IMG/VR virus record: IMGVR_UViG_3300009550_000009
DNA length: 64,000 bases
Direction: 5' to 3' (one strand)
Source: a virus
Shown: one piece after another, positions 1 to 64,000 of the stretch
Layout: the number at the start of each line of letters is the position of its first letter
Position numbering within the stretch: the stretch's first letter is position 1
Made by a program: the position numbers and the translations under genes
The notes under the pieces: model-generated
The model's input: only the letters and a program-made list of their open reading frames with translations
Databases searched by the model: none
What the model was told of the DNA's origin: nothing

Positions 1-829
1 GGACATCGATGCAATTAAAGAAAGAATGAAAGGGAAGAAGATAGTCTTCTGTCTTCCCGGTAGAGGATGCTCTTATATCTTTCTCAAGAACTTTGTTCAA
101 CTATGTTTTGACATGGTTCAGAATAATATGAGTATTCAAATATCTCAAGATTATTCATCTATGGTAAACTTTGCTCGATGTAAAGTTCTTGGAGCAAATG
201 TTTTAAGAGGCCCCAATCAAGTTCCTTGGGATGGAAAACTTGAGTATGACTATCAGTTATGGATTGATAGTGATATTGTTTTTGATACTGGTAAGTTTTG
301 GCAACTATGCGATTTAGCATTTCCTGCTGCAGCAGTTACAAAAGAAGATGTAATTGAACAGGTCAAAGATAACAAAGGAGAGTTAGTTACTGATGACGAA
401 GGTAATGTTAAAACTCAAATTACAGGACAGAAAGTATCAGTTGATAATTCTAAACTAAATGGAATTGTTGCTGGTTGGTATGCTACCGAAGACGGTGCGA
501 CAACCTCTGTTGCACATTGGTTAGAGGAAGATGACTTCCGTAAGAATGGTGGAGTGATGAATCATGAAACTGTTGAAACCATGGGCAAACGTAAAAAACC
601 ATTCACAGTAGATTACACAGGCTTTGGTTGGGTGATGATTCAGAACGGAGTTTTTGAACAACTGAAGTATCCATGGTTTGCTCCTCAGATGCAAATCTTT
701 GAATCAGGTGAAGTTCAAGACATGTGTGGTGAAGACGTATCATTCTGTTTAGATGCACAGGAAAAGGGATTTGAGATCTGGTGCGATCCTCGCATTCGTG
801 TCGGTCATGAGAAGACAAGGATAATCTAG
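1..829 (+). CDS. Conserved cyanomyovirus GT-A (GT2-like) glycosyltransferase-fold protein; frame is open from the window start, so probably 5'-truncated
   Basis: WIDSDIVF DxD motif, TGFGWVMI, GEDVSFC and DPRIRVGHEK segments typical of this family; frame open upstream of the ATG at 26. Confidence 0.7.
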   Translation, partial: DIDAIKERMKGKKIVFCLPGRGCSYIFLKNFVQLCFDMVQNNMSIQISQDYSSMVNFARCKVLGANVLRGPNQVPWDGKLEYDYQLWIDSDIVFDTGKFWQLCDLAFPAAAVTKEDVIEQVKDNKGELVTDDEGNVKTQITGQKVSVDNSKLNGIVAGWYATEDGATTSVAHWLEEDDFRKNGGVMNHETVETMGKRKKPFTVDYTGFGWVMIQNGVFEQLKYPWFAPQMQIFESGEVQDMCGEDVSFCLDAQEKGFEIWCDPRIRVGHEKTRII

Positions 830-909
830 TGGTTATTTCTTTCTTTGCAATCTTACTAATACTTTTTATAATATTAGTATTAGTAACTTATTATAATCCA
901 CATCGTTAA
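829..909 (+). CDS. Putative 26-aa single-TM peptide (VVISFFAILLILFIILVLVTYYNPHR)
   Basis: GTG start overlaps the upstream TAG (TAGTG); strongly hydrophobic; too short for the ORF track. Confidence 0.4.
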   Translation: MVISFFAILLILFIILVLVTYYNPHR

Positions 910-967
910 CGACCGCGTTTTCTCGAAAAGAATAAACGTATTAAATAGTATAACTCCTTAATTTTAT

Positions 968-1642
968 ATGGCTTGCCTCTTTGCGAACCTTCCTGCCTAC
1001 GAAGTATGGGTGAGAAAGGAATATTTAACGGATCATAAGAGTGGGCATGGAGAATTTGTCAAGGGCGTTTGGGTATCTGTAAAATCAATACCCGGACGTG
1101 CTTTTTATTTTGAAACATACTTACCTGAGTATGCTGCAATGTATGACAAGTTACCCATATCCGCGTTCGTCTCGTCACCTGAGAAACCTGATCCTGATAT
1201 GACACTTCATAATTTACAGTTTTGGAACTGTATGGACTATGGTGTTGCGGTAATTCAAAAACAATTTGTCGGATCAATGCATTACGAAGTCTATACAAGA
1301 GACTACGGAACACAAACCGGCACTTATATATGCACAATTGATAATTATCATCAAGATCCTGATGCAATTGATTATTCAACAAGTGAAAACCCAGCTGAAC
1401 ACAAGTCTCATAACCTAATTGAACTTGATAATGGTCAGTTTTGCCTCTATCCAAACAATCGAACACGTATTTACGACAACAGTTTGACACCAGAAGAACC
1501 TACAATGCCTGATTTCAAGGTTTCAACGGTTTACTATCAGGTTGAGAACGGTCATGATCGTGATGGATTGGGAAATGATGAGAATTATTTCTGGAAAACA
1601 GCAAAAGAACGTAAACAAGACGAAGAAATTCCCGAATTCTAA
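968..1642 (+). CDS. Conserved hypothetical cyanophage protein
   Basis: 224-aa ORF; family usually found just upstream of g25 in cyanomyoviruses; TTAAATA late-like box at about 941. Confidence 0.75.
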   Translation: MACLFANLPAYEVWVRKEYLTDHKSGHGEFVKGVWVSVKSIPGRAFYFETYLPEYAAMYDKLPISAFVSSPEKPDPDMTLHNLQFWNCMDYGVAVIQKQFVGSMHYEVYTRDYGTQTGTYICTIDNYHQDPDAIDYSTSENPAEHKSHNLIELDNGQFCLYPNNRTRIYDNSLTPEEPTMPDFKVSTVYYQVENGHDRDGLGNDENYFWKTAKERKQDEEIPEF

Positions 1643-1800
1643 TGGAAACAAACGATTTTTTAGACAATCTTGCGAATCATCAATACCAAAAGATGCTTCG
1701 TGAGATTAATAATGATGATTTAACACCTAAAAAGAGTGATACAGTTGAAGAAAGTGAGATTTTTCCTAACGAAGAAAAACCTAAACCACTTTATGAGTAA
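1642..1800 (+). CDS. Small acidic hypothetical protein (52 aa, METNDFLDNLANHQYQKM...)
   Basis: ATG overlaps the upstream TAA (TAATG); fills the gap exactly. Confidence 0.6.
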   Translation: METNDFLDNLANHQYQKMLREINNDDLTPKKSDTVEESEIFPNEEKPKPLYE

Positions 1801-1807
1801 AAACCGT

Positions 1808-1815
1808 GATAAATA
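1808..1815 (+). promoter_or_regulatory. T4-type late promoter (GATAAATA)
   Basis: NATAAATA about 20 nt upstream of g25. Confidence 0.7.
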
Positions 1816-1836
1816 AGATAGGTCTACTACATCTAT

Positions 1837-4171: not shown

Positions 4172-7100
4172 ATGTCAGAAAAAAGAGTTAAGTTAAATCA
4201 GATTGTAAAAAATCAACTTCCTTCCTATGTGAGGGAGGATTTTCCATTAGTTGGTGATTTTTTATCCCAATACTATCTTGGACAAGAGTATCAAGGTGGG
4301 CCAATTGATCTTATTCAAAATATTGACTCTTATATTAAATTAAATGAATCTGCAAACAATGTAAAGACAACAACTACATCTAAAACTGTTGGAATATCTT
4401 CTGATATTATTTTTGTTGCAAATACAAATGGATTTCCTGATCAAAATGGGTTGTTAAAGATAAATGATGAGATAATCACATATGAAAGTAAGACAGATAT
4501 AAGTTTTGTTAATTGTTCTAGAGGTTTTAGTGGTATTACTTCATTCACTAATCCATCTGACCCTGAAGATTTAGTTTTTTCTTCATCATTAACCACAAAT
4601 CATGAAAAAGACACTGTAGTTGAAAACTTAAGTGTTTTATTTTTAGATGAATTTTTAAAAAAGACAAAAAATCAATTTTTATACGGTTTTCAAAAAGATT
4701 TATCAACAAATTTAAACCAAGCTCAATTTTTAAGGCAATCAAAAGACTTTTATTCAACAAGAGGAACTGATGATTCGTTTAAAATACTGTTTGGTGCTCT
4801 GTATGGCGAACATGCAAGCATTATAAGACCTATTGACAATGTTATATCACCATCAAACGCTAATTACCGAGTAACCAAGGATATTATAGTTGAACCAGTT
4901 GAAGGTGATCCAGAAAATTTGTTAAACAAGACTCTTTTTCAAGATTTGTTTGAAAATGTATCAAAAGCATATGCACCAATATCAAATATTGAAAAAATCT
5001 CGGTTGGAATACTTACAAACACATATTATAAGATTAGTTTAGATGGATCGTTCAATCAAGGTGATGGATCAACTGAATTATTGTATGGAAATTTTTCTGA
5101 ACATGCAAAAACAAAGATTATTGGACAAGTTGGTATAGCACAGACATTTTTAGATGTTGATTCTACATTAGGGTTTCCAAATTCAGGAACTTTAACTTTT
5201 GCATATGAGAACGGAAGTATCGGTGTCTGCACTTATGCACAAAAAACAATAAATCAATTTTTAGGAATCAATACAACTGGAATTACTGCAACAATTTCTG
5301 ATAATACGTTTATTGATCAGAATACTTTTGCATATGCTGAAGATAATGGTGTTCAAGATGGAATTAAATTAAAAATACGTTCAGTTTTAAACAATTTAGA
5401 TTTACCAATCGAAACTTATTATCAATTATCTGGTTCAAAGGTAAAAATAAAATCTTTAGGTAAGATAGCAGATGGTTTTAAGGAAAATGGGTGGTTATTC
5501 AACACAGCTCAAAGTTATGTTGTAAAAAACTTAAGTATAGTTGATTCTGTTAATAATACATTTAAACTTGTTACTCAAGATGTCAATATTTTAAGAATTG
5601 GTGATAAAATTACAACTCATGAAACACAGTCATCAGGTGCTCAATGGGGTGATAAAATAACAGATGGATTTGATCCCGTTTCAAATAAAATTTATACTGT
5701 TACTGATGTTTTCGATGAAAATACTTGTTTGATAACTGGAACAGGTATTTCTGATCCAACAAAAGTTACAAAAGTAACTCGTCGAATATCAAAAATTGAT
5801 TCTGACCTACATCCAGATTTAAACCAGTTTACTGCTAATATTCAAAACGTATATCTTAAACCAGATATTGGATTAGTTAGAGGTGTGCCATATTATGGCC
5901 CATCACATCAGCACAAAGGTAAAAGCATGGTGGGAGCACAACATGTTCCTTTTCCTCATGATTTTATTATACCAGATCCTAATTCAAACAAAGTTTTAGT
6001 TGCATCTTCATCATTACCCTTTACTGGTGTTACAAAATTAAATCCTAAACTTCAAAAATTTACTTTTAGTGGAACTTACGATTTAAATGACGAAGAAATA
6101 AAAATTACTGATCAAGTTGATCATAACTACTTCACTGGTGATAAAGTTTACTACACACCTGAAAAGACAAAAATAACAAATACACTACCTGATGGAACAG
6201 AGGTAGTTCAAGAGTTTATTGCAAGTCAACTATTTGATGAAGGATTATATTTCATAAAGAGAGTTAATGGTAATACTGTAAAGTTTGCAAAGAGTCAATC
6301 AGATATTAATGGTGATAATTTTGTAAAGGTTAAAACTCCAAATGGTGTTGATAACGTTACTATCACTTCTAATGATATTGAAAAGTTTGAATATCAAGGA
6401 AAGAAAATAGAAACTCAAAAACTTTTCAGAGAATTTAAAACACCAATAAATGATGGGGTATCATATCCTACAACATCAGGTTATACAGGTCTTTTAGTCA
6501 ATGGTGTAGAGGTATTAAATTACAAATCAAAAAATTCTGTTTTTTATGGACAGTTAAAAAGTATTGATGTTGTTAAAGGTGGAGAAAATTATGATGTTAT
6601 CAATCCACCAGTTTTATCCATTACAGATTCCGTAGGAACAGCAGCGACTGGAAAATGTTCCGTTAAAGGAAGTTTTAAAGAAATTAAAATATTAGAATCT
6701 GGATTTGATTATATCGAAAATCCGGTTATAAAAATAACAGGAGGAAATGGTATCGGGGCAAATGCTGTTCCAAAGTTAAGTATCGTTCCGCATGAATCAG
6801 TATTTAATGCAGATGGTGTAGGATTAGGAACTGTAAACATTGGAGTTGTTACAGCTACCACTGCAGGTGTAAATACATCTTCAATAGGATTTAGCACCTA
6901 TCACAGGTTTAGACAGGGTGAGAGGGTCGTATATGATACTCTGGGGGGTATTCCATTAGTTGGGTTGACTACAGATTCAACTTACTATGTTAATAGTGTT
7001 TCGGAATATACAATCAAACTTCATAAAACATATTCTGATTCTGTAACTGGTATTAATACTATTTCGATTTCTAATTTTGGAAATGGAGTTCAGTCATTTA

Positions 7101-10100
7101 AATCATTAAATGGAAAGGCAATTGTTAGTTCAATTGCATTATTAGATAATGGTGTAGGTTATGAAAATAAAGAAAGAACTTGTAATTCAATTGGAATTAA
7201 CACAGCATTAGATTCAATTAACATTCCTGATCACGGATTCCAAACAGGTGAGACTCTTCGTTATTCGGTTGATGGAACAACAATAGATGGATTGGTTACA
7301 ACAATAGATTACTTAGTTTCAATTGTTGATGAAGATAATTTTAAACTAGCAGCTGCGGGTGTTGGAACAACCTCTAAAGATTTTTACTTAAAAACAAATC
7401 AATTCCAAGAATTAAGAAGTGTAGGGTTAGGAACTCATAAATTTAACTACCCACCAATAAGTGTAGAAATAATTGGTAAAGTAGGTTTATCATCAGTAGC
7501 AGGAAAAACATATGATGCTGTGTTACAACCACATGTTAGAGGAGAAATAACATCAGTTAACTTAACAAATAACGGTGTAGGATATGGTGCTTCAGAAATT
7601 ATAAACTTTGACAGGAAACCTGACATCAATTTAAATTCTGGACGTAATGCTGTCTTAACTCCTGTTGTCGCTAATGGTAGAATAGTTGATGTTAGTGTAA
7701 GTTTTGGAGGAACTGATTATAACTCTCCACCAGATCTAGTTGTATTAGGAATTGGATCTGATGCTAAATTAACTCCTGAGTTAAATTCAGCGGGTAATAT
7801 TGTTTCAGTTAATATTCAAAGTGGTGGTGTAGGATATGGAGTATCATCAACATTCATAAGAATAGATCCTGCAGGAAAAGGATTTAAAGGTGATCCTGTT
7901 TTACAGTCGTGGACAATTAACGAAATAAAGAAAAATGAATTAAACTTGAACGATGATGATGTTTTCATAAGTTCTCCTGTTAATTCGGAGTATGGATTGC
8001 AGTGTTCTTATGCATATGCTCCACGTAATCTTAGACAAATATCTTATGCAAGTGATGCTGATGGAAATATTCTTTATGGTAAGAAAGATTTAAAGATTGT
8101 TAATGGAGTTGAGTCTGACAGTGATTCACATTCTCCAATACTTGGTTATGCCTATGATGGTAATCCAATATATGGGCCTTTTGGTTTTGTTAATAAAACC
8201 GGTGGTAATATTGTTCAATTAGAGTCTGGGTATAGTGAAGAAGCAAATAAAAAATCAAATAGACCGCCAACAAGTATTTTCCCACCAGAATTTTTTATTG
8301 AAGATTTTACATATAATCCATCAGATAACGATGCTGTATTAGATGAAAACAATGGTAGATTTTGTATCACACCAGAATTTCCAAAAGGAACATATGCATA
8401 CTTTGCTACTTTTGATACGACTCCTGCATCAGATGGTATATTCAAAAATTTCAAAAAACCAAAGTTCCCTTATTTGATTGGTGATAGTTTTAAATCACAA
8501 CCAAATAATTTCAACTTTAATAGATTATCTAATCAAGATAACTATGATCTTGAAAAATCAAATTGTGTAAGAAACACATATCCATATTCATTTAATAAAG
8601 ATTTTAGTGGTTATGATTATATCTTACAATCAAATCAGTTTGTAACACAAGACTCTACAATTAATTTTGCAGAAAAAGGCGGTGTCGATAGAGTTGGTAT
8701 TTTATCAGCAGGTAGAAACTATCAAGTCAATGATAAACTTGTTTTTGATGACAGCATTACATCATCATTCAATGCATCAGGTAAAGTAAGTAGAATAAAA
8801 GGCCCTGATATTTCTGAGATAAGTGTTGTTACAACAACTAAGGAAAATATAGAATTTTTCCCAGATTCAAAAAATACATTTGTTTGAATTGCTACAACAA
8901 GTATTAACTTACAAAATAATACAATCGTAAATGTTGGTTCTCTATCAACAACAACAACTTCTTTACAAGGGTCTTATGCAATAGGAATTACTTCAGATAG
9001 ACTTATACTATCTCAAGGTATTGGAACAGCAGCAGCAACTGGTGTTGTTACCTTTTTCCCTGTTGTAGGTGATTTGAGAAGAATAAAGGAAAATGATAGA
9101 TTCAAAGTTGGTATTGGAACAGAAGTAATAAAAGTATTGAATGTAGATCGTAGATTGGCAAGAATAAGAGTTTTAAGATCACAAAGTGGAATTGCAACTA
9201 ATATTGGAATATCTCATACAGCATCAACAATTCTTGAAGAAATACCAAGAACATTTAAAATAACAACAGGATTTACAACATCAGTTGATTTAAAAGAGAA
9301 TAGAGAATACTATTTTGATCCTGAAGAAGCAGTAGGTTTTGGAACTACATCTGGTGTAGGTGTGGGAACATTTAGATCATTTAGCAATCCCGGAGCTGGA
9401 ATTACTGGCATATTCATACCAAGTCAGTCATTATACATTCCGGGTCATGGATTAAAAACTGGTGATGTTGTTACATATCAAACAACAGGAACAGCTCTTA
9501 AAGTCAAATTTAAAAGCACAGTCCCAACTGTTAACTCAACTTTATTTGTTGACTCACCACTCTTTGTAGCAAATCAAGCAACTAATTTTATAGGTCTATC
9601 AACTGTTAGAATTGGATTAGGATCTACTGGGTTTGTTGGAATTGGATCAACTTTAGCAGGAGCAGAATTAGTATATTTCCTAGATGCTGGTGCGGGTGAT
9701 ATTCATAGTCTTAAGACAAAATTTGATAATGTCATCACTGGACAAATTCAGAAGAATCAAGTATCTGTAGTTGGAACAGCAACACATGGTTTAAAAAATA
9801 ATGATACTGTATTCATCGATGTAAATCCCGGTTTAACAACCACTGTTACAGTTAAATACAATGTTTCAAATAGAAAAGTAGTATTCAATCCTTTATCTTA
9901 CAATGACTCTGGTATTACATCAGCAACATCTTTAACTGGTATTCCGAATACAATTAATATAAGTGATCATGGTCTTACAACTGGTCAAAAAGTTATTCAT
10001 ACATTTAGTGGTTCAGAAAGTTCTTTAGTTAATGATAAAGAATATTACGTATATGTTGTAGATAGCGATAAAATATCACTTGTCGAAAATAAATATGAGG

Positions 10101-34977: not shown

Positions 34978-36633
34978 ATGCCTACAGTTGAAAATATTTA
35001 TCTTGGCAATCCTAATTTAAAGAAAGCCAATACACCAATTGAATTTACACAAGAACAGGTATTAGAGTTTGTGGCATGTCGTCATGATCCTGTCTATTTT
35101 GCACAAAAATATATAAAGATAGTCACATTGGATCATGGATTGCAACCATTTGCAATGTATGATTTTCAAAAAAAATTAATTGAGAATTTCCATGAAAACC
35201 GTTTTAACATCTGTAAGATGCCTCGGCAGACGGGTAAATCTACAACAGTTGTATCTTATCTCCTACATTATGCAGTATTTAATGATAATGTTAATATTGC
35301 AATACTCGCTAACAAAGCCTCCACTGCAAGGGATCTTTTAGGTAGATTGCAATTAGCATATGAAAATTTACCCAAGTGGATGCAGCAAGGTATTCTTGCT
35401 TGGAACAAAGGTTCATTAGAATTAGAAAACGGATCAAAAATATTAGCAGCATCCACATCAGCATCAGCAGTTCGTGGAGGATCTTATAACGTCATATTCT
35501 TAGACGAATTTGCTTTCATTCCAAATCATATTGCAGATCAGTTCTTTGCATCTGTATATCCTACAATATCATCTGGACAAAGCACAAAAGTTATAATAGT
35601 ATCCACGCCACATGGTATGAATCATTTCTACCGTATGTGGCATGATGCTGAACGTTCAAAAAATGAATATGTTCCTACAGATGTTCATTGGTCGGAAGTT
35701 CCGGGTCGAGATGAAAAATGGAGAGAACAAACAATTGCAAACACATCTGAAGCTCAATTTAAAGTTGAGTTTGAATGTGAATTTCTTGGATCAGTTGATA
35801 CTTTGATTGCCCCAAGTAAATTAAGAAGTTTGGTATATGAGAATCCAATAAAAAGAAATGCTGGATTGGACGTATATGAAGATCCTGCTGTAAAGCATGA
35901 TTATGTTTGCACAGTTGACGTTGCTCGTGGAGTTGGAAATGATTACTCTGCGTTTGTAGTAATTGATATTACAACTTTCCCTCATAAGGTTGTGGCAAAA
36001 TATCGAAACAACGAAATAAAACCAATGCTGTTTCCCTCAATAATATATGAAGTATGCAAAAGTTATAACAATGCCTTTATATTATGCGAGGTGAATGATA
36101 TTGGTGATCAAGTTGCATCAATTCTCAATTTCGATATGGAATATGAAAATCTCTTGATGTGTTCAATGAGAGGTCGCGCTGGTCAAATTGTTGGGCAAGG
36201 TTTTTCTGGAAAGAAAACTCAACTTGGTGTAAAAATGTCTAAGACCGTCAAGAAAGTTGGATCGTTAAACCTAAAAACAATTGTTGAAGCAGATAAACTG
36301 ATATTTTGTGATTATGAAATATTAAGCGAACTTACAACATTCATACAAAAAAGTAATTCATTTGAAGCAGAGGAAGGATGTAATGATGACCTTGCCATGT
36401 GTCTCGTCATATATGCATGGTTAGTTCAGTGTGATTATTTTAAAGAACTTACTGATCAAGATGTCAGAAAAAGATTATATGAGGAGCAAAAAAATCAAAT
36501 AGAACAAGACATGGCTCCCTTTGGTTTCATGGACGATGGACTTGGCGAAGATACGTTCATTGATTCTGACGGTGATCGTTGGAATAAAGCTGACGAATAT
36601 GGAGACCGATCTTTTATGTGGGAGTATCGATGA
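34978..36633 (+). CDS. gp17: Terminase large subunit gp17
   Basis: YLGNPNLK; PRQTGKST Walker A; FLDEFAF; STPHG; DVARG; NDDL. Confidence 0.98.
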   Translation: MPTVENIYLGNPNLKKANTPIEFTQEQVLEFVACRHDPVYFAQKYIKIVTLDHGLQPFAMYDFQKKLIENFHENRFNICKMPRQTGKSTTVVSYLLHYAVFNDNVNIAILANKASTARDLLGRLQLAYENLPKWMQQGILAWNKGSLELENGSKILAASTSASAVRGGSYNVIFLDEFAFIPNHIADQFFASVYPTISSGQSTKVIIVSTPHGMNHFYRMWHDAERSKNEYVPTDVHWSEVPGRDEKWREQTIANTSEAQFKVEFECEFLGSVDTLIAPSKLRSLVYENPIKRNAGLDVYEDPAVKHDYVCTVDVARGVGNDYSAFVVIDITTFPHKVVAKYRNNEIKPMLFPSIIYEVCKSYNNAFILCEVNDIGDQVASILNFDMEYENLLMCSMRGRAGQIVGQGFSGKKTQLGVKMSKTVKKVGSLNLKTIVEADKLIFCDYEILSELTTFIQKSNSFEAEEGCNDDLAMCLVIYAWLVQCDYFKELTDQDVRKRLYEEQKNQIEQDMAPFGFMDDGLGEDTFIDSDGDRWNKADEYGDRSFMWEYR

Positions 36634-40280: not shown

Positions 40281-41951
40281 ATGTCTAAATTATTTGGGTT
40301 CTCGATTGAGAACACAGAACCACTATCTCCAAATGTAGTATCTCCAGTCCCTGAAAATAGGGAAGACGAGTCAGACTACTTTATGAGTAGTGGTTTTTTT
40401 GGTTCTTATGTTGACATTGAAGGTGTATTTAAAACTGAATTTGATTTAATAAAAAGATATCGTGAAATGAGTCTGCATCCAGAAGTGGATAGTGCCATTG
40501 AAGATATTGTAAATGAAGCTATAGTTTCTGATACAAATGATCATCCAGTTGAAATTGATCTAGATCATTTAAATGCAAGTGATGGTATTAAAAAGAAAGT
40601 AAGAGAAGAATTTAAATATATTCTTGATTTATTGGATTTTGATAAAAAAGCACATGAGATATATCGTAATTGGTATATTGATGGTAGAATCTATTACCAC
40701 AAAGTAATTGATATTAAAAAACCAGAAGAGGGTATTCAAGAATTAAGATACATAGACGCAATCAAAATGCGTTATATAAGACAAGAACAAAAATCAAAAG
40801 AGGACAAATATAAAGTAAACAATCTTTTATCAGATAATCCTACTGATTATCCCTTTCCAAAGATAGAGGAGTATTTTGTTTATAATCCAAAAGCCGCATA
40901 TCCAACTGGTAACATTCAAGCAAGAGGTGCATCTCAAGGAATTAAAATGTCAAGAGATTCAGTCTCTTATTGCACATCTGGTTTAGTAGATAGAAATAAA
41001 GGAACTACATTATCATACTTACACAAGGCTATCAAATCACTTAATCAATTACGTATGATTGAGGATAGTTTGGTGATATATAGATTATCCCGCGCTCCAG
41101 AGCGTAGGATTTTCTACATTGATGTAGGAAACTTGCCGAAGATCAAAGCAGAACAATATCTCAGAGATGTGATGATGCGATATCGAAACAAATTAGTTTA
41201 CGACGCTAACACAGGAGAGATCCGCGATGACAAAAAGTATATGGCGATGCTTGAAGATTTCTGGTTGCCTAGAAGAGAAGGAGGGCGTGGAACTGAGATT
41301 TCTACTTTACCGGGAGGTCAAAATCTCGGAGAGATCACGGACATCGAATACTTCAAGAAAAAACTCTATAGATCGCTCAATGTCCCGCCGTCGAGAATGG
41401 ATGGCGAAGGAGGATTTAACTTGGGACGATCTTCAGAGATACTGAGAGATGAGTTAAAATTTACTAAATTTGTTGGACGTTTGAGAAAAAGATTCTCAAA
41501 TATGTTCCATGATATGTTACGCACTCAACTAATATTAAAGAACATTATTACCCCAGAAGACTGGGAAACAATGAGTGAGCACATACAATATGACTTTTTA
41601 TATGATAATCACTTCTCTGAACTCAAAGAATCTGAGTTATTAAATGAGAGATTAGGTAACGTTGCAACAGCAGAACCATATATTGGAAAGTATTTCTCAC
41701 AGGATTATGTAAGACGTAAGATACTTAGACAAACTGATGAGGATATCATAGAACAAGATAAATTAATTAAACAAGAAATTGCGAGTGGTGCAATTCCAGA
41801 TCCAAGTATTCCTGTTGATCCACAAACAGGTTTACCAATGGATCAAGCTGGATCTACAGGAGATCTTGGTGCACCAGTTCAAGAACCAGATCTAGAATCT
41901 GAAGGTGGTGCAACAGAAGCACCCACTATCCCTAGTGGTGGGGAAATATAA
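40281..41951 (+). CDS. gp20: Portal protein gp20
   Basis: YRLSRAPERRIFYIDVGNLPK; EDFWLPRREGGRGTEI; ACTAAATA late box at 40255-40262. Confidence 0.98.
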   Translation: MSKLFGFSIENTEPLSPNVVSPVPENREDESDYFMSSGFFGSYVDIEGVFKTEFDLIKRYREMSLHPEVDSAIEDIVNEAIVSDTNDHPVEIDLDHLNASDGIKKKVREEFKYILDLLDFDKKAHEIYRNWYIDGRIYYHKVIDIKKPEEGIQELRYIDAIKMRYIRQEQKSKEDKYKVNNLLSDNPTDYPFPKIEEYFVYNPKAAYPTGNIQARGASQGIKMSRDSVSYCTSGLVDRNKGTTLSYLHKAIKSLNQLRMIEDSLVIYRLSRAPERRIFYIDVGNLPKIKAEQYLRDVMMRYRNKLVYDANTGEIRDDKKYMAMLEDFWLPRREGGRGTEISTLPGGQNLGEITDIEYFKKKLYRSLNVPPSRMDGEGGFNLGRSSEILRDELKFTKFVGRLRKRFSNMFHDMLRTQLILKNIITPEDWETMSEHIQYDFLYDNHFSELKESELLNERLGNVATAEPYIGKYFSQDYVRRKILRQTDEDIIEQDKLIKQEIASGAIPDPSIPVDPQTGLPMDQAGSTGDLGAPVQEPDLESEGGATEAPTIPSGGEI

Positions 41952-51319: not shown

Positions 51320-53018
51320 AAAAGTTCGTTGGAAAAATTTCCTTTCAACGGGTGATCAATATTCTGAGATAGATTTTCAAGGTTCATCTACAACTTTGAT
51401 AGTGGGATCTAATGGAAGTGGAAAGAGCACAGTTTTAGATGCTTTAACTTTTGGTTTGTTTTCAAAACCATTTCGTAAGATAAACAAAAGTCAATTAATT
51501 AATACTGTTAATGAGAAAGATTTACGAGTTGAAGTTGAATTTGTAATAGGAACAATAACATGGAAAGTAATACGTGGTATCAAACCAAATATATTTGAGA
51601 TATGGAGAAATGATAAACTACTTGATCAGTTTGCATCTGTAAATGATCAGCAAAAATGGTTAGAACAAAATGTAGTAAAGATGAATTATAAATCGTTTAC
51701 ACAGATTGTAATTTTAGGATCAAGTAACTTTGTCCCATTCATGCAATTAAGTGCAACGAATCGTAGAGAAGTAATTGAAGATTTACTTGACATAAAAATA
51801 TTCACATCGATGAATAATATTATCAAGGATAAGATTAGGCAGGTTAAAGAGAAAACAAAAACTTTAGATCTTAAAAAAGAATCTTTAATTGATAAAGTTT
51901 CTATGCAAGAAAGATTTATGAATGAAATAGAGACTCGTGGTAAAGAGGATATTGAAAAGAAGAAAAAAAAGATGGATAGTTTAGGTGATGATATTTGTGT
52001 TTGTATTATGCAGAATGAGGATGCAGAGGATAGTATCTATGGATTGCAGCAAAAACAAGAAAAATTAACAGCAGCATCAGACACTTTAGCTAAACTTAAT
52101 AATTTAAAAGGTCAGATATCTAATAAAGTATCAATGATATCTAAAGAGGATAAATTTTTTAAAGACAATACGGTTTGTCCTACATGCACTCAGGAAATCG
52201 ATGAAGATTTCAGAATAAATAAAATCAATGACGCTCAAAATAAAGCAAAGAAGTTGCAATCAGGTTATAAAGAACTTGAAGATACAATTAAAAAAGAACA
52301 AGAAAGAGAGCGTCAATTTACAAAAATATCAAAGGAGATTACTAAACTCACGCATGGCATTTCTCAAAACAACTCTCTCATCTCTAACTGTCAAAAACAA
52401 CAACGAGATCTTAAAGATGAAGTTCAAACACTTACCAATCAAATTGAAAACAGAAATACTGAGCATGAAAAGTTAGAAACATTTAAACAAAATCTCCAAG
52501 ATACATATGAAGAATTAGGGTCTCAGAAAGAGAAAATAAAATATTTTAATTATACCTATGAGTTATTGAAAGATGGTGGAGTTAAAGCAAAAATTATAAA
52601 GAAGTATTTACCATTAATAAATCAACAGATAAATCGTTATCTACAGATGATGGACTTCTATATTAATTTTACTCTTGATGAAGAGTTTAATGAAACCGTT
52701 CAATCACCAATTCATGAAGATTTTTCATATGCTTCGTTTAGTGAGGGAGAAAAACAAAGAATAGATTTAGCTTTGTTATTTACTTGGAGAGAAGTTGCTA
52801 AGTTTAAAAATTCAATATCTACTAATTTAATGGTATTGGATGAAGTGTTTGATAGTTCACTTGATGGTCAAGGAACAGAGGAATTTTTAAAGATAATTAA
52901 ATATGTTATTGAAGATGCTAACATATTTGTTATTTCTCACAAAACAGGTCTAGATGATAGATTTGAAAATGTGGTAAGATTTGAAAAAATTAAAGGATTC
53001 AGTAGGATGGTATCATGA
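51306..53018 (+). CDS. gp46: Recombination ATPase gp46 (Rad50/SbcC-like)
   Basis: GSNGSGKST; CPTC zinc hook; FSEGEK; LDEVFDSSLD; ISH. Confidence 0.98.
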   Translation: MILFEKVRWKNFLSTGDQYSEIDFQGSSTTLIVGSNGSGKSTVLDALTFGLFSKPFRKINKSQLINTVNEKDLRVEVEFVIGTITWKVIRGIKPNIFEIWRNDKLLDQFASVNDQQKWLEQNVVKMNYKSFTQIVILGSSNFVPFMQLSATNRREVIEDLLDIKIFTSMNNIIKDKIRQVKEKTKTLDLKKESLIDKVSMQERFMNEIETRGKEDIEKKKKKMDSLGDDICVCIMQNEDAEDSIYGLQQKQEKLTAASDTLAKLNNLKGQISNKVSMISKEDKFFKDNTVCPTCTQEIDEDFRINKINDAQNKAKKLQSGYKELEDTIKKEQERERQFTKISKEITKLTHGISQNNSLISNCQKQQRDLKDEVQTLTNQIENRNTEHEKLETFKQNLQDTYEELGSQKEKIKYFNYTYELLKDGGVKAKIIKKYLPLINQQINRYLQMMDFYINFTLDEEFNETVQSPIHEDFSYASFSEGEKQRIDLALLFTWREVAKFKNSISTNLMVLDEVFDSSLDGQGTEEFLKIIKYVIEDANIFVISHKTGLDDRFENVVRFEKIKGFSRMVS

Positions 53019-55343: not shown

Positions 55344-57474
55344 GCATAAGCATGTAGAGACAGCGCAGTTCAATGTCCAGACTCGCGTATTGATTCTGCC
55401 TCTTTGGGAGAAAGCAAGTAATTCTGTATATGATATGTTGGTAGCGCATGAAGTTGGGCATGCGTTATTTACACCTAATGAAGATTATAGAGACAAAGTA
55501 AAAATACCTTTTGATTTCATAAATGTTTGCGAAGATGCTCGTATAGAGAAGTTGATGAAGCGTAAGTATCAGGGTCTTCCAAAAACATTTTATTATGGAT
55601 ATAGTGATCTTCATGATGATGATTTCTTTAATGTAGTAGATGTTGATTTTGAAAAATTTAATCTTGCTGATAAAGCAAATCTTCATTTCAAGATTGGTAA
55701 TTTTATTGATATAACATTTACATCAAAAGAGAAGGAGATTATTGACGAGATTGCTAACACAGAAACTTTTGATGAAGTTCTTGTAGTATCAGAGAAGTTA
55801 TATAATTACTGCAAGGAGAATATGGAGGAGCAGAAGAAGCAAGTTCAAGATCTTGATCTTCATATGACTCCACAAACAGGACAACCAGAATCTCCAGAGT
55901 CATCTGATAGTAATGATGATGGTGAGTTAGAAGAAGTTGATCAGCAAGTCACTCAATCAGAAACTAAACCACAAAATGATTTTGGTTCAGATGAAGGTGG
56001 TGATATGGTTACACCAGAGGATGAGCAATCTGATTCTCCTTATGATCCTGATTCTTCAGAACCACAAGTTGCAACTGCAGAAGAGTTGGAGAAGAGTTTA
56101 AAAGATTTAATTGCAAGTCATGATGGTAGAGAGAATATCTATGTTGAATTACCTGATGTTAAACTTGACAAAATTATTGAATCTAATAGTGATGTTCATG
56201 ATGTTATCGAAAAACATTTTGCATGGGAGTGGAGTAGAATTAAAGCAGATAGAGAGAAGAATGGATATTCATGTGTTGCAAATCCATTTGAAGAAATTGA
56301 TTCTGAATTTAATAATTTTAAAAAGAATGCAAGAAAGGAAGTTAATTATCTTGTTAAAGAGTTTGAGTGTAAGAAAGCTGCATCTGCATATGCTCGTGCT
56401 GCAGTAGCTCGCACTGGTGTATTGAATACATCAAAACTTCATACTTATAAGTTCAATGAAGATCTTTTCAAAAAAGTTACCATATTACCTGATGGTAAAA
56501 ATCATGGATTAGTATTCATTCTTGATTGGTCAGGATCAATGCAATATATCTTACAGGATACTTTAAAGCAACTTTATAATTTAATTTGGTTCTGCAGAAA
56601 AGTAAATATTCCCTTTGATGTATATGCTTTTTCAAATGAATTCAAACGTGATGAGGGTTGGGGTTATTCTCATAATTATGATACTGTTGCCTATGAGAAG
56701 AGAGAGAACATAATGGCAATTGATAGTTGTTTTTCTCTTATGCATTTTTTCTCAAGTGATATCAAAGGAAAAGATCTTGAACAACAAATGCTTAACATAT
56801 GGAGAGTTGCATCTTTATTCAGAGTATGGGGTCATGTAACTTATCCACGTAGACTTGCATTATCAGGAACGCCATTGAACGAATCATTAATCACTCTACG
56901 TCAAATTCTTCCAGAGTTCCAAAAGAAACATAACCTTGAAAAAGTTCAGTGTATTGTTCTTACTGATGGTGAAGCTGGGCATCTCTCATATCATGTGGAG
57001 GTTAAACGTTCTTGGGAAGATGAACCATACATGGGAACACGCGGTATCGTTCCCGAAGCGACATTTATACGTGACCGTAAACTTGGTTGTAATTATAAAA
57101 TTGGTTATAGATATACAGATTTTACAGATACTATTCTTCAAAATCTTCAAGATCTATTTCCAACAGTAAACTTTATCGGTATTCGAGTTATCGTTCCTAG
57201 AGCTGCATTATCTTTTGCAAGACATTTTACAACTGATGAAACAAAGTTAAATGTGATTGAGAAAGATTGGAAAAAAACAAAAAGTTTCAATATTGTTGAC
57301 TCTGCTTATGATGCATATTTTGTAATGTCATCAGTAAATCTTAATGACAATTCAGATTTTCAAGTAAAGGAAGATGCTACCAAGTCGCAGATTAAATCAG
57401 CATTCGTTAGATCACTCAAGACAAAAAAACTAAATAAAAAAGTATTGGGCGAATTTATTTCTTTAGTGGTATGA
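55276..57474 (+). CDS. CobT-like metallopeptidase-vWA protein
   Basis: HEVGH and EDARIE zincin motifs; acidic linker; ILDWSGSM, SGTP and LTDGE MIDAS motifs; start moved to MAVQYEIK downstream of the -10 box. Confidence 0.85.
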   Translation: MAVQYEIKSQLAKLLATEDLIVEHKHVETAQFNVQTRVLILPLWEKASNSVYDMLVAHEVGHALFTPNEDYRDKVKIPFDFINVCEDARIEKLMKRKYQGLPKTFYYGYSDLHDDDFFNVVDVDFEKFNLADKANLHFKIGNFIDITFTSKEKEIIDEIANTETFDEVLVVSEKLYNYCKENMEEQKKQVQDLDLHMTPQTGQPESPESSDSNDDGELEEVDQQVTQSETKPQNDFGSDEGGDMVTPEDEQSDSPYDPDSSEPQVATAEELEKSLKDLIASHDGRENIYVELPDVKLDKIIESNSDVHDVIEKHFAWEWSRIKADREKNGYSCVANPFEEIDSEFNNFKKNARKEVNYLVKEFECKKAASAYARAAVARTGVLNTSKLHTYKFNEDLFKKVTILPDGKNHGLVFILDWSGSMQYILQDTLKQLYNLIWFCRKVNIPFDVYAFSNEFKRDEGWGYSHNYDTVAYEKRENIMAIDSCFSLMHFFSSDIKGKDLEQQMLNIWRVASLFRVWGHVTYPRRLALSGTPLNESLITLRQILPEFQKKHNLEKVQCIVLTDGEAGHLSYHVEVKRSWEDEPYMGTRGIVPEATFIRDRKLGCNYKIGYRYTDFTDTILQNLQDLFPTVNFIGIRVIVPRAALSFARHFTTDETKLNVIEKDWKKTKSFNIVDSAYDAYFVMSSVNLNDNSDFQVKEDATKSQIKSAFVRSLKTKKLNKKVLGEFISLVV

Positions 57475-57956
57475 TCACATTCAAAGAATTCATGCAAGAG
57501 AGCAGTCTCTCTCGTATAAAAAGTAAATCAGATAAGAGTGGTATAGCAACTCTTTCGGGTGATCGTGGTGACAAATCAAGGAAAGAAAATCAAGCAAGAT
57601 CAAAACAATTGCAAAAAGATATTCGTGGTAAGTTTGGTAGAGGGCCAACTAAATTAAAGGGATCATATTTAGAAAATCCCGGTTCAAAAGATGAGAGAAA
57701 AGTAAAAGAGAAAAGTTATGCAATAGATCGTGGTAAGATGGGTAAAAGAAAATTCAAGAAAGAAGTTAAGAAGTTGGGTAAGAAGTATGGGCAGGATTCC
57801 GTATTAACACAAACTAAAAAAACTGCTACACTACATAGAACAAGAAAAGGTGGATTAGATAAAAAAGGAGAAAATGTCGGTAGGTTTAAACCACAAGGTA
57901 AAAACCCATACGGTCAATCACAAGTTAAAGGTAAAACTTTCGCATATGGAGATTAA
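57471..57956 (+). CDS. Basic hypothetical protein with capsid-targeting-like N-terminus (MITFKEFMQE)
   Basis: ESSLSR; G.Y.E; E.SY; LGKKYGQDSVL motif. Confidence 0.75.
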   Translation: MITFKEFMQESSLSRIKSKSDKSGIATLSGDRGDKSRKENQARSKQLQKDIRGKFGRGPTKLKGSYLENPGSKDERKVKEKSYAIDRGKMGKRKFKKEVKKLGKKYGQDSVLTQTKKTATLHRTRKGGLDKKGENVGRFKPQGKNPYGQSQVKGKTFAYGD

Positions 57957-61470: not shown

Positions 61471-61494
61471 GATTTAAAAAAAGCACTGGTCAAA

Positions 61495-61707
61495 ATGAAA
61501 AAACGTGCTAACATATGGAATATATGGAAGTATGCCCTTGGTTCCTTCCAAGATGAGACGACTAAAAAGTATGATAATACGATTTGTATTATACGCACTT
61601 TTATTTTCTTACAATTAGTTGTCACCAATTGTTTTATCGTTGCCGGTAACATTCGACACTGGAACGATCATTATACACCACCACATTATGAACGTATTCG
61701 TGACTGA
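61495..61707 (+). CDS. Small membrane hypothetical protein
   Basis: WKYALGSF.DE.T..YDN..IRT..TN.FIVAGN.RHW pattern. Confidence 0.7.
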   Translation: MKKRANIWNIWKYALGSFQDETTKKYDNTICIIRTFIFLQLVVTNCFIVAGNIRHWNDHYTPPHYERIRD

Positions 61708-62224
61708 TCCCTGCCCTTACAAATCGGCAGAAGTATTACCAGACAAACACATAGTTAAGATGCCACTTGAGACTTGCCAGATGTTGGCAGTAGTCTATTC
61801 CAAGTGGTATTTTAATTGGGGAGATGAATTATTATCCAAGAAGGATGGAACACCCTACAACACCAAGAAAGGGGCATTCAGGGGGCATCCGTGCACCGTA
61901 TGGGCAGCAAAAGACATTAAGAACACTGCATGGTTAATTGCACATGGAACTGCCTTATGTTATGAATATTACAAGAGATATGAAAAAATACATTCATGCT
62001 CTAAAACAATGAATGAAGCGAGACATGTTTTTCTTAAATACTCTGGAGAGAAAGATTTTTCTATCTGCAGAAAAGTAAATACATTTGCCTTTGCAGGGCC
62101 TGATGAATTTAAATATGATAAAAGTATTGATATATTTACTGCATACAAAAGATATATTTCAAGTAAACCTTGGGCAGCATCTAATTACTTACGTAATCCA
62201 TCTCGAAAACCTGATTGGTTATGA
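61688..62224 (+). CDS. Pyrimidine-dimer DNA glycosylase / endonuclease V-like protein
   Basis: MNVFVTD..DKHIVKMPLE.CQML; HPCTVW; EY..RY.K.H; start moved to ATG 61688. Confidence 0.75.
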   Translation: MNVFVTDPCPYKSAEVLPDKHIVKMPLETCQMLAVVYSKWYFNWGDELLSKKDGTPYNTKKGAFRGHPCTVWAAKDIKNTAWLIAHGTALCYEYYKRYEKIHSCSKTMNEARHVFLKYSGEKDFSICRKVNTFAFAGPDEFKYDKSIDIFTAYKRYISSKPWAASNYLRNPSRKPDWL

Positions 62225-62340
62225 GTGATCACAAACCCAACAATGATGACAAAATACCTAGATGGTTTTATAATACAGTTATTAGTATGGGTATTATGGT
62301 CTTTATTGCTTTTGGTTTAATTTTATTTGGTATGATATGA
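62221..62340 (+). CDS. 39-aa single-TM peptide (MSDHKPNNDDKIPRWFYNTVISMGIMVFIAFGLILFGMI)
   Basis: ATGA overlaps at both ends. Confidence 0.6.
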   Translation: MSDHKPNNDDKIPRWFYNTVISMGIMVFIAFGLILFGMI

Positions 62341-62678
62341 AACACGTTCTATTTGATTTAAAACAATGTCTGATCACTCCTCCTTTAGATGATGAGGAGT
62401 ATGTGAAAGAGACTCTAGTAGAGGCAGCAAAGATTGCAAACCTAGAATTACTAAAGGTTGATACACATAAATTTGAACCACATGGCGTGACTGGTTATGC
62501 ATTACTTGCAGAGAGTCACATAAGCATACACACATGGCCTGAAGATGATGTTGCTAGATGTGACTTATTTTCGTGCAATCCAAAGACAGATTACAAATCT
62601 GTGATACAATATATGCAAACCCGTTTTCACTCTATGGAAGTTAAAAGATGGGGATGTGATAGATCTAATTGGTTATGA
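62337..62678 (+). CDS. speD: Pyruvoyl-dependent S-adenosylmethionine decarboxylase proenzyme
   Basis: HKFEPHGVT..LLAESHISIHTWPE..DLFSC; E-S self-cleavage site. Confidence 0.88.
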   Translation: MKHVLFDLKQCLITPPLDDEEYVKETLVEAAKIANLELLKVDTHKFEPHGVTGYALLAESHISIHTWPEDDVARCDLFSCNPKTDYKSVIQYMQTRFHSMEVKRWGCDRSNWL

Positions 62679-63136
62679 AGGAATTTGATTATGAACTCGA
62701 TTACAAGAGACTTAGTTTTACAGACGAGGAAACTCGTAAATTTTATCGTATTGGAAGGGGAGAGCAAGGAGTTTTACTGGTTCGCCCTTATACTAACGAT
62801 ATATGTGCTCATTGGAGATTCAAAACTCCTGATGAAGCAGTAAAATCTTCTAACAAAATTTTTGCAATGTATCTTGATTATCGTGATGAAAAAGATTTCA
62901 TCGGTATGGATATGTGTCGTAAGTTTTTGGAGATGGGATTTACTCGTGCAAGACGATATGCAAATCACAACTCTGGACGTAAGTATGATGATGAGGGAAA
63001 TGTAAAACCACAAGAACCTGATCATGCTACGAGTAAATATGCACAATCTGCAACAATTTTTAAGAAAGTGCGAGATTTAGTGGCTAACAACGATACATAT
63101 AAACATATGAGAAAAACATGGAGGTCTAAAGAATGA
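62675..63136 (+). CDS. DUF4385-family protein
   Basis: YRIGRGEQGVL..PY..WRFKTP..GMDMCRKFLEMGFTRARRYANH. Confidence 0.8.
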   Translation: MKEFDYELDYKRLSFTDEETRKFYRIGRGEQGVLLVRPYTNDICAHWRFKTPDEAVKSSNKIFAMYLDYRDEKDFIGMDMCRKFLEMGFTRARRYANHNSGRKYDDEGNVKPQEPDHATSKYAQSATIFKKVRDLVANNDTYKHMRKTWRSKE

Positions 63137-63297
63137 TTTTTTTATCTAAACCATCAGCGTATTTTTTACCGAATACTTGGGAAGCACCAAACGTGACTTA
63201 CGATTTATTCCCCGCAGAAGTGCAAATGTTAGCATTATGTGTTATGATAGCAGCAGTCGCATTACTATCAACTAGAAGGAAGAGAAAGTTAAACTAA
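63133..63297 (+). CDS. 54-aa membrane peptide with basic tail (...MLALCVMIAAVALLSTRRKRKLN)
   Basis: ATGA overlap; TM helix followed by RRKRK. Confidence 0.55.
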   Translation: MIFLSKPSAYFLPNTWEAPNVTYDLFPAEVQMLALCVMIAAVALLSTRRKRKLN

Positions 63298-63312
63298 ACT
63301 TACTATTTTATT

Positions 63313-64000
63313 ATGAGTGATTTTATATGGGTTGAAAAATATAGACCCAAAACCATTGACGATTGTATTCTTCCAAAAAGTATTAAGAAAACATTTCAAG
63401 ACTTTTTGGAAAAAGGTGAAATACCAAATATGTTGTTATCAGGGCCACCCGGCATTGGTAAAACTACAGTTGCAAAAGCATTATGTCAACAACTTAATGC
63501 TGATTACTACGTTGTTAATGGATCAGATGAAGGTAGATTTCTTGATACTGTAAGAAATAAAGCAGCGAACTTTGCATCAACAGTTTCTTTAGTTGGTGGT
63601 GCAAATCATAAAGTAATTATCATCGATGAGGCAGATAATACTACTCACGATGTTCAACTTTTACTGAGAGCAAATATAGAAACATTCTATAATAACTGTC
63701 GATTTATATTTACTTGTAATTATAAGAATAAGATCATTGAACCTTTGCATTCAAGATGCACTGTTATTGACTTTGCGATCAATAAGAAAGACAAACCTGC
63801 AATCGCAGCATCTTTCTTTCAAAGAATAAATGATATCTTAGATAAAGAGAGAGTAAAGTCTGATAAGAAAGTTTTAGCAGAACTAATTAACAAACACTTT
63901 CCTGATTGGAGGAGAGTATTAAACGAGTGTCAAAGATACTCTGTAAGCGGAGAAATAGACTCCGGTATATTAGCAACCTTTTCTGACGTATCAATCAATG
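63313..64000 (+). CDS. gp44: Clamp loader large subunit gp44 (3'-truncated by the window end; absent from the ORF track)
   Basis: MSDFIWVEKYRPKTIDDCILP; GPPGIGKTT; IIDEAD; PLHSRC; FPDWRR. Confidence 0.95.
   Translation, partial: MSDFIWVEKYRPKTIDDCILPKSIKKTFQDFLEKGEIPNMLLSGPPGIGKTTVAKALCQQLNADYYVVNGSDEGRFLDTVRNKAANFASTVSLVGGANHKVIIIDEADNTTHDVQLLLRANIETFYNNCRFIFTCNYKNKIIEPLHSRCTVIDFAINKKDKPAIAASFFQRINDILDKERVKSDKKVLAELINKHFPDWRRVLNECQRYSVSGEIDSGILATFSDVSIN

Follow-up and report, generated by a model that had tools for sequence, protein, structure and literature searches.

Absence of the word GTAC from a T4-like cyanophage lineage and its probable relation to a phage-borne restriction-type nuclease gene

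Introduction

Sharp reportedly described the avoidance of restriction sites (palindromes) in phage genomes in 1986. Restriction-site avoidance was also treated by Rusinov et al. (2018; PMC6286503), who mention neither cyanophages nor GTAC. In phages that avoid palindromes, a short palindrome is removed synonymously, in a lineage-specific manner and under selection, and the textbook driver is the restriction-modification (R-M) system of the host. The cyanophage lineage described here is represented by a window of 64 kb (the whole stretch of DNA that was analysed, from IMG/VR record IMGVR_UViG_3300009550_000009), and it resembles these cases in that the word GTAC is depleted beyond codon usage, was removed synonymously, and is under ongoing negative selection. 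However, not a single copy of this 4-bp word is left over at least 144 kb, and the best-supported driver of the purge is the phage's own methylase-less nuclease gene, here called R, rather than a host system.

Among chloroviruses, R.CviQI, which cuts G^TAC, is paired with M.CviQI. The role of chlorovirus R-M systems has been reviewed (PMC7253447, citing Agarkova et al. 2006). Like the R lineage, chloroviruses infect phototrophs and possess a Type II nuclease; theirs breaks down the DNA of the host and may also keep out competitors, and the CviQI word is GTAC too. However, chlorovirus DNA is protected by methylation, whereas no cognate methylase was found in the DNA seen of the window lineage, where protection would come from the absence of sites. 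In T4, endonucleases II and IV break down host DNA, and the phage DNA contains hydroxymethyl-cytosine. The likeness would lie in a T4-like phage that tells its own DNA from that of the host and whose nucleases destroy only the latter; the T4 mark is a modified base, whereas that of the window lineage would be informational, namely a missing 4-bp word. PacI of Pseudomonas alcaligenes is a methylase-less restriction enzyme from which its carrier is protected by absent sites, and is thus likewise an orphan Type II nuclease tolerated by a genome without its recognition sites. However, the PacI site is an 8-bp, AT-only word that is absent almost for free in a GC-rich genome, whereas the window lineage is a virus from which several hundred 4-bp sites were removed by selection. 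Bacteria and archaea have characterised enzymes that read GTAC, namely RsaI, Csp6I, and PabI. The word that R is predicted to recognise is identical to theirs, but R is unusually small (201-205 aa) and matches no Pfam family, PabI included.

Results

GTAC did not occur anywhere in the window (positions 1-64000), in coding or non-coding DNA and, the word being a palindrome, on either strand, compared to 197 copies expected on base composition, 136 under a Markov model of first order, and 161 under one of second order. Synonymous-codon shuffles within genes gave 173 ± 10 copies, with a minimum of 140 (n = 300; z = -18). By frame, the shuffles predicted 50, 106, and 17 copies, and none was observed in any of the three. 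The non-coding DNA of the window (4 kb) also had none compared to approximately 11 expected. GGT was used for 0 of 137 Gly codons before Thr, whereas it made up 52% of Gly codons elsewhere, and AGT, TGT, and CGT were never used for Ser, Cys, and Arg preceding Thr. Likewise, GTA was used for 0 of 149 Val codons that precede a codon starting with C (34% elsewhere), and all 93 Tyr codons following an NNG codon were TAT. The dipeptides themselves were undepleted (Gly-Thr, 137 vs 114 expected; Ser-Thr, 142 vs 122 expected). The first-pass annotation of this DNA had claimed that GTAC was purged window-wide by frame-appropriate synonymous recoding; the codon-preserving shuffles bear out the purge, and the codon contexts in all three frames, with the dipeptides kept, bear out the recoding.

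The six examples given in that annotation, all on the plus strand, were also correct when checked against the sequence. Gly-Thr is encoded by GGC-ACT and not GGT-ACT at 1319-1324 (frame-2 avoidance). Frame-1 avoidance is seen at 5885-5890, where Val-Pro is GTG-CCA and not GTA-CCA, and at 28009-28014, where Val-Leu is GTG-CTC. Ser-Thr is AGC-ACA and not AGT-ACA at 35581-35586 in the large terminase gene, and again AGC-ACA at 51426-51431 in a gp46-like SbcC ATPase gene; Arg-Thr is CGC-ACT and not CGT-ACT at 41520-41525 in the portal gene. Comparison of orthologous codons agreed with this. Relatives had GTAC at 783 aligned sites, and at 398 of the 783 the dipeptide was the same while the codon in the window was different. 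Amino acid sequences were conserved, and the words that replaced GTAC in the window were mostly GAAC, GTTC, GTAT, and ATAT.

The absence was not limited to one assembly. Over 40 contigs assembled independently from Illumina metagenomes, 99.2-99.9% identical to the window and taken from Tara Oceans, ENA, and JGI short-read assemblies of different samples, were GTAC-free too. The non-redundant sequence of the lineage amounted to 144.5 kb (of a genome of approximately 200 kb, about 30% of which lies outside) and contained 0 GTAC compared to 355 expected from the second-order Markov model. Among 1076 population SNPs, 0 created a GTAC compared to 14.8 expected, whereas control words matched expectation; two candidate GTAC-creating SNPs were each accompanied by an adjacent second change that avoided GTAC. 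Because new GTAC-creating SNPs are absent, selection against the word is still acting and is no historical relic.

R encodes a 205-aa Type II restriction-endonuclease-like protein, identified by profile match at 8765-9382 of L182, a 99%-identical Tara contig. It lies outside and upstream of the window, approximately 13.3-13.9 kb from the window's first base. In the window's own genome, a stretch ending 997 bases before the window had 34 of 37 short words in common with R. R matched the PADLOC profile PDLC03460 ("REase_II, Type II restriction enzyme") over residues 50-179 with E = 3e-14, and its homologues in L520, P-HM1, and L429 matched the same profile at 1e-13 to 7e-15. A Pfam search of R returned no family, PabI included, and the PabI family profile (PF09522) had no match in R or among the window proteins scanned. 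The AlphaFold model of R had a mean pLDDT of 87.8. Its best 12 VIA-align matches were 11 Type II restriction endonucleases and MutH, with Z of only 4.6-7.0 (SfiI, 7.0; NhoI, 6.5; DpnI, 6.4; also BglI, BcnI, ThaI, PvuII, MutH, Sau3AI, SwaI, and EcoRV), and Foldseek with the model gave nothing below E = 0.04. These structural neighbours are mostly of the blunt-cutting EcoRV/PvuII branch, which would loosely fit an RsaI-type cut. Residues D41, S53-x-K55, D63, D66, E73, and K90 were invariant in 31 sequences. R had a dN/dS of 0.06-0.07 at a dS of approximately 0.5, compared to 0.21-0.26 for the flanking genes, and is under strong purifying selection. The R family comprised 486 sequence clusters in marine metagenomes.

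In relatives, R is genetically linked to a methyltransferase-like gene. In 36 of 36 loci where R was 59-70% identical, the ORF following it encoded a protein of approximately 165 aa (M165), which like R is unusually small. M165 had methylase motifs I (DPxRGxGAF) and IV (NPPW) and weak matches to Type II methylase profiles, and no target-recognition domain was recognisable in it. From these motifs M165 appears to be adenine-methylase-like, and it may methylate at GTAC. A homologue of M165, M310, or another DNA methylase was seen neither in the window nor across the 144.5 kb of lineage sequence, and the remaining 30% or so of the genome could hold one. An orthodox Type II R-M system would have its cognate methyltransferase in the same genome, and the 144.5 kb seen contained none.

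Across cyanophages, the level of GTAC varied with the state of these two genes. Observed over expected GTAC (second-order Markov) was 0/355 with R alone, 212/625 (0.34) with R and M165, and 0.54-0.64 with neither. The spread and age of the purge were apparent. At one and the same site, contigs in which the neighbouring helicase was 91-100% identical had R and lacked GTAC, among them L429, L522, and L523, whose DNA identity was only 81-85%. In contrast, sisters with a helicase of 84-88% identity had the R-flanking genes approximately 250 bp apart, and therefore no R, and their GTAC was 144/225 (0.64). GTAC was the only word to flip between the R clade and the R-less sisters (z = -15; next word, -7.6). 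The orphan-R state occurs in a single clade and so represents one evolutionary event.

The cultured phages P-HM1 and P-HM2 are of one species and were both isolated on Prochlorococcus MED4. P-HM1 possesses R (PHM1_072) and M165 (PHM1_038) and had GTAC at 52/178 (0.29) of expectation, whereas P-HM2 possesses neither and was at 150/228 (0.66). The difference in GTAC was 2.3-fold, and the other 4-bp palindromes were all alike. These correlations suggest that R cleaves at GTAC. However, GTAC was at 0.3-0.9 of expectation in nearly all cyanomyoviruses, R-less ones included (such as Bellamy, 22/59), and some R-less contigs were very low (L564, 1/30; L567, 3/21); selection against GTAC must therefore come from further agents too.

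The most depleted words of the window were all restriction-site-type palindromes. GGWCC was found 0 times compared to 37 expected, TTCGAA 0 compared to 18, and CCWGG 4 compared to 48. The R-less sisters lacked these three words as well. No candidate nuclease for the three purges was found in the phage, so a purge here needs no detectable phage-borne enzyme.

Discussion

It is probable that this T4-like cyanophage is spared from its own restriction-type nuclease by the absence of GTAC target sites. GTAC may have been gradually depleted while R and M165 were both present, after which M165 would have been lost and R retained in the clade of the window. An active nuclease without a methylase would allow zero tolerance for target sites in its own genome, so that each GTAC would have been recoded synonymously and each new one eliminated. 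R could then cut GTAC-bearing DNA, namely the host chromosome (approximately one site per 0.5-1 kb) and the DNA of co-infecting phages, and the purpose of cutting might be nucleotide scavenging, host shut-off, or competitor exclusion.

A wider generalisation can be offered tentatively, with doubt slightly outweighing belief. T4-like cyanophages, which are without the modified bases of T4, might distinguish self DNA by information and not chemistry, each lineage possessing one or more small methylase-free nucleases and a genome purged of the matching 4-bp word, while host and rival-phage DNA is shredded. The R family would then be a restriction enzyme of a new and very small kind, specific for GTAC, and M165 a methylase without a target-recognition domain, and the patchwork of purged words in related cyanophages (CCGG, CTAG, TCGA, GGWCC, and others) would be a readout of fast-changing phage nuclease arsenals, not of host defences.

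If true, self-protection from R gives a concrete answer to how cyanomyoviruses without modified bases degrade host DNA, namely with a site-free genome and a methylase-free nuclease. A k-mer "hole" in a phage need not report host defences, which bears on host prediction and on arms-race signatures. A marine protein family that is abundant and unannotated would gain a probable specificity, and R with its minimal methylase partner would be of enzymological and possibly biotechnological interest. P-HM1 and P-HM2, which on MED4 differ in exactly the R and M165 module, are a ready experimental system. The nested purges, TTCGAA followed by GGWCC, CCWGG, and GTAC, would be a dated record of the nuclease pressures that an abundant ocean virus has met.

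The first-pass annotation had instead read the missing word as a signature of host defence. The part of that reading that stands is selection, long-term and ongoing, against a restriction-type nuclease that reads GTAC, as indicated by synonymous recoding, the restriction of the effect to palindromes, and the lack of GTAC-creating SNPs. The assignment of the nuclease to a host defence, and with it the use of the signature as a readout of the host, is not supported. Natural hosts could have an RsaI/Csp6I-type GTAC R-M system from which the phage escaped by losing sites, with R reading another site or being tolerated because the genome was already GTAC-free. Site avoidance is classically caused by host restriction, which is well documented (Rusinov et al. 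2018; PMC6286503), GTAC is mildly depleted in phages without R, and the purges of GGWCC, TTCGAA, and CCWGG, common to the R-less sisters, mean that some outside nuclease pressure clearly exists. However, we consider this origin unlikely for GTAC. P-HM1 and P-HM2 share one host strain yet differ in GTAC alone, following R and M165, and at the syntenic site where R is either present or absent, the total purge goes with the phage-borne, methylase-less R. Whatever it may target, an orphan R at a dN/dS of 0.06 cannot do without a site-free genome, and no word but GTAC is absent specifically in the R clade. Candidate hosts also showed no avoidance: GTAC was at 0.6-1.3 of expectation in 65 Cyanobiaceae genome samples, although a host whose DNA is methylated has no need to avoid the site, and a search of 401 Cyanobiaceae genomes with the PabI profile alone gave no enzyme of that family.

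Alternatively, GTAC nucleases of co-infecting cyanophages could have driven the loss, with this lineage being the most advanced case, irrespective of the R that it carries. The R and M165 family is abundant in the ocean, judging from the 486 clusters; nearly all sampled cyanomyovirus loci are moderately depleted in GTAC while hosts are not; and in marseilleviruses competitors are excluded by R-M systems that the virus carries, a role proposed for chloroviruses as well (PMC7253447). Such warfare probably contributes to the background depletion. As the cause of the purge it is very unlikely, since it leaves unexplained both the drop from approximately 0.6 to exactly 0 that coincides with R minus M165 and the zero tolerance of GTAC-creating SNPs.

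A cause other than a nuclease (mutational or codon-pair bias, mimicry of host composition, or RNA-level selection against GUAC) is highly improbable. All window genes are on one strand, so that selection on RNA and selection on DNA cannot be told apart with a palindrome. However, non-coding DNA is GTAC-free too, hosts are undepleted, GTAC persists at the same codons in close relatives, the step between sister lineages is abrupt, and the most depleted words are of restriction-site type. Systematic miscalled bases or misassembly at methylated GTAC sites, including the long-read miscalls about which the first-pass annotation had cautioned, or editing of the record, found no evidence in their favour and are refuted, since the independent short-read assemblies from different samples agree, the replacements are frame-dependent and synonymous (GGA, GTT, TAT) and not GCAC or GTGC, and amino acid sequences are conserved.

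Regarding other words, the purges of GGWCC, TTCGAA, and CCWGG had been overlooked in the first-pass annotation. AGCT, which it had called common, was instead depleted three-fold in the window (52 vs 153 expected; z = -11).

Absence of GTAC from the window and its population

The window contains the core structural and replication genes of a T4-like cyanomyovirus. It carries gp25, gp6, a giant gp7-like protein, neck, terminase, sheath, tube, portal, prohead protease, scaffold and gp23 genes, together with UvsY, UvsW, a gp55-like sigma factor, gp47/46, cobS, bilin reductase, gp45, denV, speD and gp44. Its GC content is 34%, and the closest cultured phages reach approximately 75% DNA identity and no higher. 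CheckV rated the nearest record (72.7 kb) as 35% complete, which puts the lineage genome at about 200 kb. At 8885-8887 an in-frame TGA interrupts the giant gp7-like baseplate gene, leaving two ORFs (1571 and 2745 aa); at this position, 6 of 6 metagenome contigs with 99% identity have GGA (Gly) within a single 4379-aa ORF. The TGA reflects either a nonsense mutation, an error in sequencing or a variant from the laboratory.

GTAC did not occur once in the 64,000 bases, compared to 197 copies expected from base composition and 161 from a second-order Markov model. Within-gene shuffling of synonymous codons gave an expectation of 173 ± 10 (minimum 140, z = -18), and about 11 further copies were expected in non-coding DNA. 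The first-pass annotation had proposed a window-wide purge achieved by synonymous codon choice; the counts bear this out, and all 6 of its example coordinates were correct. Thr codons were never preceded by GGT, AGT, TGT or CGT, codons starting with C were never preceded by GTA, and Tyr after an NNG codon was TAT in 93 of 93 cases and never TAC. Every codon-junction spelling was thus absent, with the dipeptides that could spell GTAC at their expected frequency. Relatives had GTAC at 783 aligned positions, where the window had a mixture of GAAC, GTTC, GTAT, ATAT, GCAC and others; the amino acid pair was unchanged at 398 of these. The mixed replacements and the retention of the same two amino acids indicate selection on the DNA rather than base-calling error. 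Long-read miscalls, raised earlier as a possible source of the absence, are also contradicted by independent metagenome contigs (99.2-99.9% identical) that are likewise free of GTAC.

Those contigs, from Tara Oceans, ENA and JGI metagenomes, were up to 122 kb long. Using exact-protein look-ups, we extended the lineage by walking approximately 80 kb past the window along metagenome contigs. The resulting 144.5 kb of non-redundant sequence contained 0 GTAC (355 expected). Among 1076 distinct population SNPs, none created GTAC (14.8 expected), which indicates that selection is acting now; the two candidate SNPs were each paired with a neighboring second change that averts the word. Control words were created at expected rates (GATC, 17 vs 16.4; CATG, 15 vs 14.6).

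A restriction endonuclease-like gene upstream of the window

No restriction-like gene was found among the window genes scanned. When 64 unannotated lineage ORFs were scanned against PADLOC, a 205-aa ORF (R) at 8765-9382 of L182, a Tara contig 99% identical to the window, matched "Type II restriction enzyme" (E = 3e-14). R is located in an early-gene cassette region, at 13.3-13.9 kb upstream of the window, and an index look-up places it in the window's own genome (34 of 37 words shared over a stretch whose end is 997 bases short of the window). No Pfam family matched R. Its AlphaFold model (pLDDT 87.8) had as best structural neighbors almost exclusively Type II restriction endonucleases at modest Z scores of 5-7, mainly blunt cutters of the EcoRV/PvuII branch. 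The R family is plentiful in marine metagenomes, where it comprised 486 clusters, none of them named. Many R residues were invariant among 31 sequences. Orphan R had a dN/dS of 0.06-0.07, compared to 0.21-0.26 for neighboring genes, at a dS of about 0.5.

Several other genes were considered as the nuclease and rejected. A DruA-like 375-aa gene between gp44 and gp62 (L167:14086-15213, approximately 7 kb downstream of the window; PF14236, E = 5e-8; PADLOC DruA, E = 2e-6) has copies 74-94% identical in relatives with normal GTAC. The conserved protein has no link to GTAC status; it is widespread in cyanomyoviruses, also occurs in Pelagibacter phage HTVC008M, and is named "methylcarbamoylase mom" in one GenBank record; a PDB sequence search gave no match. 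A T5orf172/MUG113 GIY-YIG gene is missing from part of the GTAC-free population, and a 183-aa ORF adjoining R is a widespread basic protein, neither nuclease nor methylase. SegE-like GIY-YIG, endonuclease VII, SNase, denV and gp46/47 were set aside as generic and without site specificity.

Two further regions of the lineage were observed. At the left end of its contigs, approximately 23 kb upstream of the window (L416:51-5269), five ORFs of 336-361 aa lie in tandem, paralogs with 34-45% identity at which several assemblies end; they had no Pfam match in precomputed gene lists, and those scanned had no PHROG, PADLOC or NCBIfam match. Approximately 32-47 kb downstream (L420:8024-20810 and L423:1-13510), a cluster of about 15 kb encoding epimerases, glycosyltransferases, sugar methyltransferases and UDP-glucose dehydrogenase looks like a large glycan-synthesis island. 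It is followed by a staphylococcal nuclease-like gene (L423:18841-19302) and PTOX.

A methylase-like partner of R and its absence from the window's lineage

We aligned the ORFs downstream of R. In 36 of 36 loci with an R 59-70% identical, the next ORF overlaps R and encodes about 165 aa (M165) with methylase motifs I and IV (NPPW), weak matches to Type II methylases, and no visible target-recognition domain. Examples are L520:10609-11106, L514:10600-11085 and L622:10404-10898, the last being PHM1_038 of cyanophage P-HM1. Neither the window's lineage nor the sisters closest to it (L429 and L521-L523, whose R is 92% identical or more) had M165. The 144.5 kb of lineage sequence, approximately 70% of the genome, showed no other DNA methylase either. 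Judged on that portion, R is an orphan in the lineage and these sisters, a state that arose once.

A 310-aa beta-class methylase (PF01555) adjoins R, just before it, in four loci and was first taken as its partner. It was ruled out because many phages have it but lack R, P-HM1 and P-HM2 each carry it, and GTAC is not further depleted in loci where it occurs alone. R and this methylase were searched against 5.8 billion proteins; the entries returned were all unnamed or generic.

GTAC levels follow R and M165

Relative to second-order Markov expectation, GTAC was 0/355 with orphan R, 212/625 (0.34) with R and M165, and 0.54-0.64 with neither. The sharpest test graded contigs on the helicase adjoining the R site. 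Contigs with a helicase 91-100% identical had R and zero GTAC. In sisters with a helicase 84-88% identical, the genes flanking R were approximately 250 bp apart, leaving no room for R, and GTAC was 144/225. When all 4- to 6-mers were compared between the R clade and these R-less sisters, only GTAC flipped (z = -15; next, -7.6). CCGG, GCGC and AGCC separated loci with R from those without overall more than GTAC did, when distant R homologues were included; we attribute this to clade structure, since CCGG is above expectation in the window's lineage.

The first-pass annotation had ascribed the purge to an RsaI/Csp6I-type host defense. A GTAC-reading nuclease as the selecting agent is retained, but its owner is probably the phage rather than the host, given the correlations between R and GTAC and the comparison of P-HM1 and P-HM2. 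These two are cultured phages belonging to a single species and provide a second, independent contrast. P-HM1 has R (PHM1_072) and M165, with GTAC at 52/178 (0.29), whereas P-HM2 has neither, with GTAC at 150/228 (0.66); all other 4-bp palindromes are at equal levels in the two. Their isolation host was the same, Prochlorococcus MED4, which argues against a host-driven difference. Phages lacking R also showed mild GTAC depletion, and a few contigs of this kind (L564 and L567) a strong one; enzymes of the host or nucleases from co-infecting phages probably contribute to the selection. GTAC was very low in L564 (1/30), L567 (3/21), L435 (6/31) and L436 (2/16), four loci with a 275-aa methylase directly 3' of the helicase and no R within the contig. 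R may lie outside the contig in these four, or a different GTAC nuclease may act on them.

The most parsimonious reading makes R and M165 a phage-borne restriction-modification pair whose specificity would be GTAC. Phages with both would already thin out GTAC; with the methylase lost in the window's clade, orphan R would enforce a genome with zero GTAC. R may serve in host DNA breakdown or exclusion of rival phages, as chlorovirus and marseillevirus precedents suggest (PMC7253447); hosts have one GTAC per 0.5-1 kb. From the sequence comparisons, this is probably a new form of restriction-site avoidance, in which the genome is cleared of the site read by the phage's own, methylase-free enzyme. 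The literature searched offered no description of it and nothing linking GTAC with cyanophages or Prochlorococcus methylation. Within the window, 57471-57956 encodes a member of an S-adenosylmethionine lyase family (PF23780, E = 2.5e-18), that of the T3 anti-restriction SAMase. We speculate that a phage that degrades SAM could hardly protect itself by means of a methylase; this would suit a methylase-free strategy.

Other depleted words

The window also lacked GGWCC (37 expected) and TTCGAA (18 expected), contained 4 CCWGG (48 expected), and showed roughly three-fold depletion of AGCT (52 vs 155) and AGCC/GGCT (38 vs 107). Relatives were graded by the identity of one gene downstream of the window, and the losses were nested: TTCGAA was absent in the deepest set, GGWCC in a narrower one, CCWGG in one narrower still, and GTAC in the closest lineages only. 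GTAC was 0 at approximately 89% DNA identity, 0.3-0.5 of expectation at approximately 81%, and 0.7 further out. The R-less sisters with a helicase 84-88% identical still lacked GGWCC, CCWGG and TTCGAA, so the cause of these purges is unlike that for GTAC.

Other cyanomyovirus lineages were instead rid of all CCGG, CTAG or TCGA, each with its own set. CTAG was 0 vs 80 in S-SM2 (L115/L460), TCGA was 0 vs 23-36 in one clade, and CCGG was fully removed in many lineages; loci with such total purges also included L126, L127, L130, L139 and many of L201-L264. Across 65 genome samples (GC 27-72%) from Cyanobiaceae, the host family, none of the phage word depletions was found, which indicates that word avoidance in the phages does not mirror host composition. 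One contig labeled as a Gammaproteobacteria MAG (L284, NYUL01000008.1) had a cyanophage-like psbA and avoided palindromes in the manner of a phage (CCGG, 3 vs 16; CATG, 23 vs 79), and is probably a mis-binned cyanophage fragment.
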